NCBI GenBank assembly: GCA_028714455.1
Contig: JAQTMG010000002.1
Span: forward strand, 38,047 to 102,046
Length of the DNA stretch: 64,000 nt
Direction of reading: 5' to 3'
Source of the DNA: Patescibacteria group bacterium
Lineage (GTDB): Bacteria > Patescibacteriota > Patescibacteriia > CAIXNZ01
A model generated the notes under the pieces. The model searched no databases. It was given only the letters and a program-made list of their open reading frames with translations, and had not been told where the DNA came from. Shown piece after piece: positions 9,581 to 60,247 of the stretch. A program made the translations under genes and the position numbers. Within the stretch, counting starts at the first letter, position 1, and every line of letters begins with the position of its first letter.

Positions 9581-10444
9581 ATGCCAGAGCTGCCAGAGGT
9601 AGAAACAATAAAACGCGGTTTAGCAAAAAACATAGTGGGCAAAACCATAGCTGATTTTGATTGTGATTGGAAAAAAATGTTAAATAGACCACTTTCTGAA
9701 TATAAAAAGGTTTTGAAAAGTTTGAAAGTTGAAAATGTAAAAAGACGCGCCAAGTTAACAATCATAAATTTATCAAGGGACTGGAATATCTTGGTTCATT
9801 TGAAATTAACCGGCCAATTGGTTTTTGGCAGTAAGACTAGATGTGTGGTCGGCGGCCATCCGATCAAAGAAGGTTTTGATTGTCTGCCTAATAAATTTAC
9901 GCACGCCAATTTTACTTTTAGCGATAAAAGCCATTTATATTTTAATGATATTCGTAAATTCGGCTGGCTTCACCTTTTGACTGATACTGAATTGGAAAAA
10001 GAAATTGAAAAAATGAAGCTGGGCATTGAGCCATTTGATAAAAACTTTACTTTGGGATATTTGAAAATTTTATTAAAAAGAAGGCCGAATATGAAAATTA
10101 AGCAATTTTTACTTGACCAGTCATTGATTTCCGGGCTTGGCAATATTTATAGCGATGAAGTTGATTTTTACGCGCATGTGCGGCCCATGAGGCAGGTAAA
10201 AACTTTAAGTGAAAAAGAAATTAGTTTGATTTACGCGGGTATCAAAAAGATTTTAGCTGCTTCTATAAAAGCCCAGGGCACGACTTTTAGCAATTATCGC
10301 AATGCCAACGGGGAAGCGGGTGCTTATTCTAAGCAACTTAAGGTTTATGGCAAATATGGCGAGCCCTGCCCAGGCGGCGGCAAGATTGTGCGGGTGCGTA
10401 TAGCTGGTCGCTCCGCCTCATATTGCCCTAAGTGTCAGAAATAA
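9581..10444 (+). CDS. mutM: formamidopyrimidine-DNA glycosylase
   Basis: N-terminal MPELPEVE; C-terminal zinc finger CPGGGKIVRVRIAGRSASYCPKCQ. Confidence 0.9.
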   Translation: MPELPEVETIKRGLAKNIVGKTIADFDCDWKKMLNRPLSEYKKVLKSLKVENVKRRAKLTIINLSRDWNILVHLKLTGQLVFGSKTRCVVGGHPIKEGFDCLPNKFTHANFTFSDKSHLYFNDIRKFGWLHLLTDTELEKEIEKMKLGIEPFDKNFTLGYLKILLKRRPNMKIKQFLLDQSLISGLGNIYSDEVDFYAHVRPMRQVKTLSEKEISLIYAGIKKILAASIKAQGTTFSNYRNANGEAGAYSKQLKVYGKYGEPCPGGGKIVRVRIAGRSASYCPKCQK

Positions 10445-10496
10445 TTGTTTAAAATTAGCCAAATATTGTTGTTAACCTTGTGTTTTTGGTTAACAT

Positions 10497-12764: not shown

Positions 12765-12860
12765 GATGGGCGAAAATGGCCATCCTGCGCCGTATCGCAG
12801 GATTGTAGAGACGCGGTGCACCGCGTCTCTACGGCGTTTTACGCCAGCCATTTTCGCCCT
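12764..12860. repeat. REP-like composite palindrome family B, copy 1 (outer IR GGGCGAAAATGGC/GCCATTTTCGCCC; inner GTAGAGACGCGGTGCACCGCGTCTCTAC)
   Basis: Perfect 28-bp GC-rich palindrome inside nested hairpins; related copies at 32085-32203 and 59968-59995. Confidence 0.8.
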
Positions 12861-22790: not shown

Positions 22791-22819
22791 TTGACAAAAA
22801 TTATACTCCTGCTATACTG
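22791..22819 (+). promoter_or_regulatory. promoter TTGACAAAA-N17-TATACT for the rplJ-rplL operon
   Basis: Followed by a ~200-nt leader, a possible L10 autoregulatory leader. Confidence 0.55.
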
Positions 22820-22977
22820 TATTTATAACCGCAGACAATAGGTTTTCGCAAGATGTAAATCCTATCGAGGTTGTAAAATCAATAATTGATTTTTTATCGT
22901 ATTGTCTGTGGGAAACCGCAGATTTTTTTGTTTTAGATATTGGAGATTGGTGACTGGAGATTAGCGAAAGGAAAAAT

Positions 22978-31591: not shown

Positions 31592-31620
31592 TTGACAAAA
31601 AAATATTTTATTGCTAAGTT
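31592..31620 (+). promoter_or_regulatory. conserved promoter TTGACAAAA-N-TAAGTT
   Basis: Spacer 17; drives the 31652 gene. Confidence 0.5.
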
Positions 31621-31651
31621 GAAGTCAAACTTCAAAAAGGAGGAGCTTAAA

Positions 31652-32026
31652 ATGAATGGAGAAGAAGGATTGAAATTGCAATTACTTTGTGCGCTGAAGC
31701 ACATCAGAACTTTAAAAGCGAGAACGGACGATGGGGAATCGTACAAAACTGGCGACATGACTAGAGTGGCTAACACCATCGGAATTGTCGTTGAAGATGT
31801 GGGCCCGAACGAAGATTTCGTGCTTGTTTACATGGCCAAAAAAATTGTCGCGCCCAAAATTTCCGGTTCGGGAACCAATTTTGTCCCGGGAGAAAACGTT
31901 TACTACGATTCGCAGGCGCACAAAGTGACGACTTCGAGCTCGGGCAACGTTCTCTGCGGCAAAGCCCTGGAGTCAGCCAGTGATTCGGCAAGCGAAGTTC
32001 TGATCGAGCTCATCGTGTTTGCGTAG
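31652..32026 (+). CDS. small protein, DUF2190-like (tentative; two-lobed Gly/Val-rich beta pattern)
   Basis: SD AAAAAGGAGGAGCTTAAAATG; GIVVEDVGPNEDFVLV ... SGNVLCGKALESASDSASEVLIEL; higher GC. Confidence 0.4.
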   Translation: MNGEEGLKLQLLCALKHIRTLKARTDDGESYKTGDMTRVANTIGIVVEDVGPNEDFVLVYMAKKIVAPKISGSGTNFVPGENVYYDSQAHKVTTSSSGNVLCGKALESASDSASEVLIELIVFA

Positions 32027-32084
32027 AATCGCAATTTATCAAACCAAGGCGGAGCAGAAATGCTTCGCCTTTTAATTTTAGGAG

Positions 32085-32203
32085 AGGCGAAAACGGCCCA
32101 TTACGTAGAGACGCGACATGCCGCGTCTCTACAACGGTTTTTTTGCACGCCGTAGAGACACGGCGCGCCGTGTCTCTACAACGGTCGTGGGCCGTTTTCG
32201 CGA
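32085..32203. repeat. REP-like composite palindrome family B, copy 2 (outer IR CGAAAACGGCCCA/TGGGCCGTTTTCG; two inner palindromes GTAGAGACGCGACATGCCGCGTCTCTAC and GTAGAGACACGGCGCGCCGTGTCTCTAC)
   Basis: Perfect 28-bp palindromes at 32105-32132 and 32152-32179. Confidence 0.85.
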
Positions 32204-32212
32204 ATCGATTAT

Positions 32213-32245
32213 TGACTTTTTTTATTTTTTGAATTATGCTAAGTT
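32213..32245 (+). promoter_or_regulatory. promoter-like TTGACT ... TATGCT/TAAGTT
   Basis: Upstream of the 32307 gene. Confidence 0.4.
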
Positions 32246-32306
32246 ATTAAGATGTTCTCTAATAAAAGTCCCATCCAGGGGCAATAAAAAAGGGGGTGAT
32301 AATTTG

Positions 32307-32747
32307 GTGAATGAAAAGTTGAAGTTGAGACAGCAGGCTTTGTTTTTGGTGGGCGGTTCGTATAAGGGAGAAAACGCTAAATTGATTTTGGCAAAGATCA
32401 GACAAGCGCTGGAAGATGGCTCGATTCATATTGAAGAGTTGGGCGTAACGCTGGAACAACTCAAGGAAGCCGAAGAGAAAATCAAAAAAGAGACTCTGCC
32501 CCGCGTTCAGGAAATGTCAGAAGCAGAGGCTAAGGATTTGGCCAGTGGTTTTGGCAAGTTGTGGCAGCAATATCAAACCGAAGCGGACGCGGATCAGAAA
32601 AAAGAGATTTTGGCTCTAATGAAAACCATGTGGCCACGCCTGGTTCATGGGGTTAAGGCTCGCCTGATTGTTTACGCCGATCTTGGCCTCGAAGACGCCG
32701 GAGAATATTTCGTAATTTCAGACGTCATGCACCAAGGCGGAAAATAA
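32307..32747 (+). CDS. hypothetical protein (~146 aa, GTG start 7 nt after AGGGGGTGA)
   Basis: The track ORF from 32118 begins inside the REP element; the SD-supported start is the in-frame GTG at 32307; higher GC. Confidence 0.45.
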   Translation: MNEKLKLRQQALFLVGGSYKGENAKLILAKIRQALEDGSIHIEELGVTLEQLKEAEEKIKKETLPRVQEMSEAEAKDLASGFGKLWQQYQTEADADQKKEILALMKTMWPRLVHGVKARLIVYADLGLEDAGEYFVISDVMHQGGK

Positions 32748-37918: not shown

Positions 37919-38545
37919 ATGAATGTCATCGCCTTCTTGGTTCTGCTTTTGTTCTACGTTCTCATCTTCGCGCGGCTCGAGGCGGAGATTGAGGGAGAAT
38001 TTGGCTGGGCAGCCAAACTGCCGACGGCCAGATATCGCCTGAAAGGCGAGGCGCTCGAATATCGCGCGTTTGCGTCGGCTGACACCAGCTGGGTTGAGAT
38101 TGACAGATCCACGATGCGGGGCAAATTCTTTTCAGCTTATATCGGATTCCTTGGCGGCAAGGATTTTACCTGGTATCACCGAGTCGTCGATCTACTTCAG
38201 CTCTTTGTCGCCCACCTGATTATTTATCTGTGCTTTGGTTCTGAACCCAAGTGGGTCTTGGAAGTCCGCGCCGTGGCCACGCTTTTTCTGATCTGGAGTT
38301 TGGAAGATACGTTCTATTTCTTTGTGAACCCGAGGTTTGGGTTTAAGAAGTACAATCCGGAAAGCATCGGATGGCATAAAGATTGGCTGACCATCGGCGG
38401 AATCAGGATTGGAGACAAAGGCATGATGGGTTTGCTGGCTGGCGGCGCCATCCTATTTGTTCTTTCCCTTTTCCTCCACTGGCTTGTCGTCAACGTCATG
38501 CCGGCCGCCCTGTATATTAATGAGGCGGTGAAAAATATTTTTTGA
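37919..38545 (+). CDS. hypothetical membrane protein (208 aa), high GC
   Basis: SD AAAAGGAGGAAGAAAATG; several TM helices. Confidence 0.45.
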   Translation: MNVIAFLVLLLFYVLIFARLEAEIEGEFGWAAKLPTARYRLKGEALEYRAFASADTSWVEIDRSTMRGKFFSAYIGFLGGKDFTWYHRVVDLLQLFVAHLIIYLCFGSEPKWVLEVRAVATLFLIWSLEDTFYFFVNPRFGFKKYNPESIGWHKDWLTIGGIRIGDKGMMGLLAGGAILFVLSLFLHWLVVNVMPAALYINEAVKNIF

Positions 38546-59680: not shown

Positions 59681-60247
59681 ATGGGGGATGAGTATTTTAA
59701 AAATAAATATCGTGTGCCATCAACACGTTTGGGTCATTGGAATTACGCGGATGGGGGATTTTATTATGTCACCATTTGCACAAAGGATAGGAAATGTTGT
59801 TTAGGCGAAATAAGAGGTAATAATGTTTATTTATCAAAAATTGGAGAGATTGTTTTGGATGAATGGTTGAAAACACAAAAATTAAGGCCAAATGTGGTTT
59901 TGGATGATTTTATTATCATGCCAAACCATATTCACGGAATTATTGTAATTAAAAATAACCAAACCGCCGTAGAGACGCATTGCAATGCGTCTCTACAACG
60001 AACGGAACAGAGACAAAACGCATTTGGCCCGCAAAGAAATAATTTGTCGTCAATTACTCGCGGCTTTAAAGGTTCTGTGGTGAGAAATTGTCGCGAGAAT
60101 AATTTTGATTTTGAATGGCAACCGCGATATTACGAACACATTATCAAAAACGACGAGGATTACGCTCGGATAAAAGGATATATTGCCAATAATCCGGTGA
60201 ATTGGGAATTTGATCGTGATAATCCCAAAACCTTTAAAATATCTTGA
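59681..60247 (+). mobile_element. REP-associated tyrosine transposase (RAYT, IS200/IS605 TnpA-like) with a family-B REP palindrome embedded in-frame
   Basis: HUH motif PNHIHGIIV, catalytic Tyr region RYYEHIIKN; GTAGAGACGCATTGCAATGCGTCTCTAC at 59968-59995 encodes ...AVETHCNASLQRT... Confidence 0.8.
59968..59995. repeat. REP family B palindrome, copy 3 (inside the RAYT ORF)
   Basis: Perfect 28-bp palindrome with the same GTAGAGACGC arms as 12806-12833 and 32105-32179. Confidence 0.85.

Follow-up and report, generated by a model that had tools for sequence, protein, structure and literature searches.

In a 64,000-nt stretch of contig JAQTMG010000002.1 (assembly GCA_028714455.1, forward-strand positions 38,047 to 102,046) from a Patescibacteria group bacterium, called the window here, we analyzed a short gene at 59681-60247 that carries a perfect 28-bp palindrome within its reading frame. 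The gene very likely encodes a tyrosine transposase of the type associated with repetitive extragenic palindromes (REPs), a RAYT, of subclass 2.4, which corresponds to RAYT Group 4, with the internal palindrome being one of its REPs. This in-gene REP is conserved as DNA far beyond coding constraint. The features of the gene, in window coordinates, are the following.

59681-60247, plus strand: gene of 188 aa, very likely a TnpA_REP subclass 2.4 / Group 4 RAYT, recognized from the list of open reading frames (ORFs), family profiles and matches in the Protein Data Bank (PDB) and Foldseek.
59927-59935, plus strand: HuH codons H83-I-H85, within PNHIH, with H83 and H85 invariant in a 43-sequence alignment and the motif fitting NH[IFV]H.
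59969-59996, no strand assigned: 'double foot' REP, perfect 28-bp palindrome GTAGAGACGCATTGCAATGCGTCTCTAC, composed of the halves GTAG-AGACGCATTG and CAATGCGTCT-CTAC and read as V97-Q106.
60116-60121, plus strand: WQ motif W146-Q147, invariant in the 43-sequence alignment and matching the subclass 2.4 W motif.
60179-60196, plus strand: Y motif Y167-I-A-N-N-P, fitting the subclass 2.4 pattern YIxNNP, with Y167 as the presumed catalytic tyrosine.

A preliminary description of this DNA, made from the sequence alone, had read the gene as an HUH/Tyr transposase of the RAYT type, and its motifs, the family alignment and profile and fold matches to the PDB entry 4er8 bore this out. Across the 43 aligned homologs, H83, H85, W146, Q147, Y167 and N171 were invariant and P172 was conserved in at least 90%. 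Searching the PDB with the family profile returned 4er8, the Escherichia coli TnpA_REP, as the sole match (E = 3e-8), with the Y motif of the window protein aligned to 'YIYINP' of that structure; identity between the two proteins was about 21%. An AlphaFold2 (AF2) model of the window protein had a confident core, with a predicted local distance difference test (pLDDT) score of 82 and a predicted template modelling (pTM) score of 0.76. Its top Foldseek match was again 4er8_A (E = 4.6e-8, template modelling scores of 0.58/0.66), followed by weaker matches to the ISDra2, IS608 and IS200 transposases. In 2018, Quentin, Siguier, Chandler and Fichant defined subclass 2.4 by the HuH motif NH[IFV]H, the W motif WQ, the Y motif YIxNNP and a mean length of 194 aa, and took it to be the same as RAYT Group 4 of Bertels (BMC Genomics 19:475; PMC6006769). 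With NHIH, WQ, YIANNP and 188 aa, the window protein shows each of these signatures, and its Y motif fits none of subclasses 2.5, 2.6 and 2.7. An autonomous IS200/IS605 element (subclass 1.1) was considered as well and rejected, as the window protein has NHIH, WQ and YIANNP, not DH[VI]H, W[TS] and Y[IV]ENQ, and hairpins at the gene ends are absent.

The palindrome encodes V97-E-T-H-C-N-A-S-L-Q106 and lies in frame between H83-I-H85 and Y167, as had been described, one base to the right of the position first given for it (59968-59995). Its centre is GCATTGCAATGC. The folding energy of this hairpin is -14.6 kcal/mol (z = -6.65) for single-stranded DNA (ssDNA) and -20.9 kcal/mol (z = -4.8) for RNA. 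Whether the segment is a surface loop had been raised as a question earlier. In the AF2 model, residues 91-121 are coil, and residues 97-107, which include the palindrome-coded peptide, have pLDDT values below 50, placing the peptide just after the HUH strand in a surface loop for which disorder is predicted. From HuH to WQ the window protein measures 73 aa, compared with 53-65 aa in palindrome-free homologs; the palindrome itself codes for ten residues, and the former figure of about 14 added residues was thus approximate. The loop differs in length among homologs, has predicted disorder and lies outside the well-predicted AF2 core, and would therefore tolerate ten extra residues.

We compared ten independent genes that encode VETHCNASL at this place, namely the window gene, L001 (from Sericytochromatia), L082, L101, L102 and L104-L108, where L numbers denote homolog loci. 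Pairwise protein identity to the window gene ranges from 52 to 64%. Nine of the ten, the window and eight others, carry the identical 28-mer and the tenth differs by one synonymous base, out of 36,864 possible synonymous encodings, while the bases immediately beside the palindrome differ in all ten. Inside the REP, identical residues used identical codons in 396/405 cases (0.978), compared with 2120/3855 (0.550) outside it. In the window, L102, L104 and L106, the centres of nearby intergenic REPs differ from the in-gene centre.

More globally, among the 120 closest proteins, at 44-100% identity and chiefly from Patescibacteria, 117 have a palindrome-type peptide at the same place; 68 of these peptides are in the [VI]E[TM]...S[LP] frame, 40 in the RD....VST frame and nine slightly degenerate, and the remaining three proteins had no recognizable HuH or WQ motif in the scan. 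Scanning species-representative genomes yielded 80 loci that span Bacteroidota, Cyanobacteria/Sericytochromatia, Gammaproteobacteria, Ignavibacteriota, Chloroflexota, Planctomycetota, Patescibacteria and others, and a metagenome scan added 20 further loci, mostly on short contigs. Counting was based on the 93 sources (92 loci and the window) with an intact HuH-to-WQ stretch. Between HuH and WQ, 51 of them carry a total of 52 in-gene GT[AG]G...C[TC]AC palindromes, of which 43 are 28 nt long, eight 29 nt and one 34 nt; the arms are perfectly complementary in 42. In 29 cases the G of GTAG is the first base of a codon (peptide VE...), in 23 the second (peptide RD...) and in none the third, a frame in which TAG would be a stop codon. 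The search definition itself fixes positions 1-4. Among the 27 distinct 28-mers, position 8 is invariant, and positions 5-13 vary only as complementary pairs. The compensated centre and the use of two frames indicate that the conserved object is the DNA palindrome, not the peptide. Orthologs do share the peptide VETHCNASL, a case that the preliminary description had considered, and they encode it with the same palindromic DNA rather than without it, so that the REP reading survives and the reading as a one-off insertion fails.

The same description had called an in-frame copy between the HUH motif and the catalytic tyrosine unusual. This view has to be given up in light of the counts above and of the published account of subclass 2.4, in which in-frame REPs, generally between HuH and Y and peripheral in a structural model, are named a 'remarkable and unique feature' (PMC6006769). 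The same work describes a beta3-alphaC insertion that is variable in length and sequence and contains short DNA repeats, REPs with a 'double foot' (5' GT[AG]G, 3' C[TC]AC) and, in its Table S1, 28-nt units such as GTAGAGACAAGGCATGCCTTGTCTCTAC (PMC6006769). The window gene with its internal REP is therefore very probably a further member, from Patescibacteria, of a published RAYT subclass.

Within the window, the internal palindrome has relatives in intergenic DNA. Scanning for GTAGAGACGC-N8-GCGTCTCTAC with up to three mismatches, and taking the expectation from shuffled sequences, we found four GTAGAGAC...GTCTCTAC units in the 64 kb against 0.00 expected (12805-12832, 32105-32132, 32152-32179 and 59969-59996), all four with double-foot ends (5' GT[AG]G, 3' C[TC]AC). 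The foot GTAGRGRC occurs ten times against 1.8 expected, and eight of these ten occurrences are arms of the four units. The in-gene and intergenic copies thus share one GTAG-footed pattern, in agreement with the earlier assignment to a single REP family. The intergenic features, none with an assigned strand, are listed below.

12768-12859: composite 1, with outer inverted repeat GGGCGAAAATGGC/GCCATTTTCGCCC, between divergent DUF212 and YceG genes.
12805-12832: double-foot REP GTAGAGACGCGGTGCACCGCGTCTCTAC, with four central differences from the in-gene copy that are compensated, keeping the pairing.
32087-32201: composite 2, with outer inverted repeat GGCGAAAACGGCCCA/TGGGCCGTTTTCGC, downstream of ORF 31592-32026.
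32105-32132: double-foot REP with imperfect centre, GTAGAGACGCGACATGCCGCGTCTCTAC.
32152-32179: double-foot REP, perfect palindrome GTAGAGACACGGCGCGCCGTGTCTCTAC, one nucleotide away from the in-gene REP of the Patescibacteria homolog L085.

As first described, both composites have nested outer inverted repeats: GGCGAAAAYGGCC, common to the two, encloses one REP at the first site and two at the second. Composite 1 contains three hairpins (12782-12803, the REP at 12805-12832, and 12833-12845) and folds as ssDNA at -43.6 kcal/mol (z = -11.35). Composite 2 encloses two REPs in the same flank orientation, each followed by AACGG, and folds at -43.3 kcal/mol (z = -7.5). The outer repeat has no relation to the REP arms and carries no GTAG foot; GGCGAAAAYGGCC was absent from the 100 homolog loci searched for it. 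The base of the outer stem, GGGCGAA.../...TTCGCCC, resembles the 'canonical long REP' of subclass 2.4 (PMC6006769), so that each composite may be a long REP whose loop holds the double-foot REPs.

Around composite 2, the ORF 31592-32026 (plus strand) on its 5' side matches Pfam Phage_cement_2 (E = 4e-10) and may mark phage-derived DNA; a terminator-like hairpin, read from the sequence, follows its stop codon at about 32045-32075. The mechanically called ORF 32118-32747 (plus strand) takes its ATG from the loop of the REP at 32105-32132, reads through the REP at 32152-32179 and has no Pfam match. Probably the REPs have spuriously extended this ORF in its 5' part, an artefact of the type that brings REP-coded peptides into protein databases. 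Rfam, at gathering thresholds, gave no RNA family at the gene or the composites; the sole family in the window was the ribosomal protein L10 leader RF00557 at 22811-22939 (plus strand; 52.3 bits, gathering threshold 44).

Several observations weigh against the assignment of gene and palindrome to a subclass 2.4 system. The window protein scored below the cut-off for both Pfam Y1_Tnp PF01797 (20.9 bits, cut-off 23) and NCBIfam REP_Tyr_transpos NF047646 (57.7 bits, cut-off 80). These scores are sub-threshold because the REP-coded loop splits the domain, and precomputed PF01797 matches are present in many close homologs. The in-gene copy differs from the three intergenic window copies at 4-8 central positions, and because the centres differ, cognate status within the window rests on the shared 10-nt arms. 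The gene is not part of a classical REPtron either: the 6-bp spacer to the upstream S-adenosylmethionine (SAM)-methyltransferase gene (end 59674) and the 20-bp spacer to the downstream Mur ligase gene of the MurC type (start 60268) contain no REP. Finally, the searched literature gave no assayed Group 4 / subclass 2.4 enzyme, biochemistry being available for Groups 2 and 3 only; since assays cover only these two groups, activity on double-foot REPs is an extrapolation.

Turning to the homolog loci, we found 58 further double-foot units, 28-29 nt long, in the fetched loci and the window besides the 52 in-gene ones. The in-gene unit and a nearby intergenic unit were identical in L028, L057, L061 and L070, differed by one nucleotide in L018, L077 and L083 and by two in L029 and L045. 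Many of these nearby units are directly upstream or downstream of the gene, as in a classical REPtron. The published subclass 2.4 REP GTAGAGACAAGGCATGCCTTGTCTCTAC recurs beside the L077 gene, whose in-gene copy is one nucleotide away, and the loci L056 and L077 both carry a REP listed by Quentin et al. for a 2.4 member (PMC6006769). REPs flank the gene in L101, L106 and L108, and none do in the window, L102 and L107. In Patescibacteria homologs, unrelated housekeeping genes border the gene on both sides at a distance of a few bases; gene neighbourhoods vary among these homologs from the candidate phyla radiation (CPR), and a pattern and ORF scan found a single RAYT copy in the 64-kb window.

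The HuH-to-WQ stretch ranges from 53 to 129 aa among homologs. About 12 short-loop homologs (53-65 aa) lack the palindrome and keep all motifs. Median loop lengths with and without a double-foot REP were 81 versus 75 aa, a comparison that is uninformative as many of the genes counted as 'without' have other palindromes or repeats.

In-frame REPs also occur at other places in the gene. Five loci (L025, L030, L074, L075 and L076) have one that falls in the beta-hairpin following 'YFGEI', some 116 nt upstream of the HuH codons, and in L030 another lies at the extreme C-terminus (1083-1110), running into the stop codon. In L083, a decayed remnant in the VET frame adjoins a fresh REP in the RD frame. 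The additional sites and this remnant argue for recurrent insertion and turnover. Tandem partial REP arms or units of 12-24 nt adjoin the in-gene REP in L001, L031, L036, L043, L054, L074 and L078, with expansions such as (GRDVAADD)x3, (SHLQ)x8, (GNGG)n and (PPAQPSAQ)n, which suggests either slippage or several rounds of cutting and joining at the hairpin.

Other hairpins were seen in further branches. Four Patescibacteria loci in the RD..VST frame (L085-L088) share a C/A stem mismatch, GACACG...CATGTC, that yields the His in RHVST and may reflect a peptide-level or strand-specific constraint. L048, a Jacksonbacteria contig, has a pair of paralogous RAYT genes separated by about 10 kb (52-279 and 10229-10486), each with two internal hairpins of another type, AGACGC...GCGTCT, without a GTAG foot. 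In the more distant relatives L094 and L096-L098, at 34-37% identity, different GC-rich palindromes occupy this loop, for instance GGGCAGGTCCGCGACCTGCCC and GGGCGATTCACGAATCGCCC, which encode peptides such as VGAGPRPALT and VGAIHESP; the same loop thus hosts non-GTAGAGAC hairpins in other branches.

TnpA_REP enzymes bind a GTAG foot plus hairpin on ssDNA, with cleavage and rejoining close by. The window gene very likely encodes a single-domain HUH/Y1 nuclease that, if it works like the E. coli TnpA_REP, would bind GTAG-footed ssDNA hairpins, cleave and rejoin them, and so spread REPs through the genome. Owing to the double foot, with GTAG at one end and CTAC at the other, either strand would present the same GTAG-hairpin, and the enzyme presumably recognizes GTAGAGAC-footed hairpins, including the copy in its own gene. 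That copy most likely entered the gene by REP insertion and would persist since the loop tolerates extra residues, being kept as DNA and not as peptide. The hairpin might be retained as a site for the enzyme, as a cis-linked copy of the substrate or an autoregulatory element, or it might be renewed from the REP pool of the genome.

Two explanations for the DNA-level conservation have to be weighed. On the one hand, the in-gene REP is possibly a selected cis-acting hairpin in DNA or mRNA that, in the compact genomes of Patescibacteria, would replace the flanking REPs of a REPtron. With such an element, the enzyme could regulate its own gene by binding or nicking the hairpin; the element could also be a resident, permanently linked substrate copy, or an mRNA hairpin that limits expression of a potentially genotoxic nuclease; the last variant would act within a methyltransferase-RAYT-murC transcription unit. 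The contrast in codon identity between the REP and the rest of the gene favours selection, as do the use of both stop-free frames, in which the peptides differ and the arms stay the same, and the stability of the hairpin as both DNA and RNA. Moreover, spacers of 6 and 20 bp leave no space for flanking REPs, making the internal copy the only gene-linked REP. The fit is incomplete: some family members lack the palindrome altogether, and within the RD..VST lineage, centres vary and the conserved C/A mismatch recurs in several copies. HUH Y1 enzymes such as IS200/IS605 TnpA and TnpA_REP are known to bind ssDNA, not RNA, which also counts against this reading. Down-regulation of RAYTs by REP hairpins has been proposed before by Di Nocera et al. 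(PMC3733652).

On the other hand, the REP may equally be a passive passenger, a neutral insertion in a permissive loop that looks conserved through replacement or homogenization from the REP pool or through hairpin-templated repair; Quentin et al. treat internal REPs as tolerated insertions (PMC6006769). REPs at several sites of the gene (after the HUH strand, after 'YFGEI' and at the C-terminal end), the turnover seen in L083, the partial-arm and short tandem expansions beside the REP and the four loci whose in-gene and flanking copies are identical all fit this explanation, as do the predicted disorder of the loop and the palindrome-free short-loop homologs with every motif in place. It accounts less readily for the identical 28-mer in nine of ten VETHCNASL genes whose synonymous sites elsewhere are 55% identical, and for the retention of the palindrome peptide in almost all of the closest homologs. 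Local homogenization, in particular, would not yield the in-gene identity, given that the intergenic centres differ in the window, L102, L104 and L106. Against a firm verdict for the selected hairpin stands that the data fit selection and renewal from a pool dominated by the same REP variant alike; we rated the two about equal.

A third explanation, by which VETHCNASLQ is a functional peptide motif, such as a metal site formed by its His and Cys, and the palindrome is incidental, finds some support in the presence of VETHCNASL in many homologs but was rejected as highly improbable, being contradicted by the use of two frames (40/120 close homologs read the same arms as xRDxxxxVST) and by codons that are invariant despite the many possible encodings, and further disfavoured by the occurrence of the same sequence family in intergenic DNA, the pLDDT below 50 of the segment and the full set of catalytic motifs in segment-free homologs.

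Beyond the published description of subclass 2.4, our analysis adds a Patescibacteria member with an internal REP only, conservation at the DNA level, the two-frame rule and additional in-gene REP sites. The literature we searched held no paper linking RAYTs with Patescibacteria and none following up the internal REPs of subclass 2.4, and searches with the strings GTAGAGACGC and VETHCNASL returned only unrelated primer matches. The window gene extends REP/RAYT systems to Patescibacteria, whose streamlined genomes have no such record in the searched literature. On the practical side, gene callers and domain models should anticipate in-gene REPs in subclass 2.4. The comparative data also sharpen the question of which role is played by RAYT Groups apart from 2 and 3. 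If the hairpin is selected as DNA, subclass 2.4 would be a simple test case for nuclease-substrate linkage, with one gene and one hairpin that can be recoded while leaving the protein unchanged.

Among known systems, the E. coli TnpA_REP/REPtron (4ER8; Ton-Hoang 2012; Messing 2012, PMC3479197; Corneloup 2021, PMC8266576) shares with the window gene the HUH/Y1 fold and a GTAG-tagged hairpin. It differs in belonging to subclass 2.2 / Group 2 and in its REPs, which are single-footed with a bulged stem, flank the gene and form bacterial interspersed mosaic elements (BIMEs), with none inside the gene. The Pseudomonas REPIN-RAYT system (Bertels and Rainey 2011, PMC3116915) likewise combines one transposase gene, in our case within the 64-kb window, with palindromic repeats embedded in larger intergenic hairpins. 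REPINs, however, are doublets of inverted REPs that flank Group 2/3 RAYT genes and reach hundreds of copies, whereas the window holds four units in 64 kb, each of which is itself palindromic, and the long stem of the composites stems from the unrelated outer repeat GGCGAAAAYGGCC.

In-frame elements in unrelated genes form another parallel, including the Rickettsia palindromic elements (RPEs) and the GTAG/CGTC REPs, GTAG REPs having been reported inside unrelated genes by Di Nocera et al. in 2013 (PMC3733652). As in the window gene, a short peptide is added and the protein stays intact. In those cases the host genes are unrelated and the sites non-homologous; here, the REP sits in the gene of its own enzyme and mostly at a homologous site across phyla.

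The closest counterpart is published subclass 2.4 itself, with which the window gene shares NHIH, WQ and YIANNP, a length of about 190 aa, a variable insertion after the HuH strand, a 28-nt double-foot REP in frame between HuH and the tyrosine, and short repeats in its relatives. Group 4 is common in Cyanobacteria, Chlorobia and Caldilineae, and the accessible part of the paper reporting this describes no internal palindrome (Bertels et al. 2017, PMC5581495). The window gene stands apart from the published members in its CPR host and in having no flanking REPs, where internal REPs were described as occurring 'in addition to' flanking ones. Last, while internal REPs of subclass 2.4 have been regarded as tolerated insertions, the DNA-level conservation of the copy in the VETHCNASL lineage suggests constraint.

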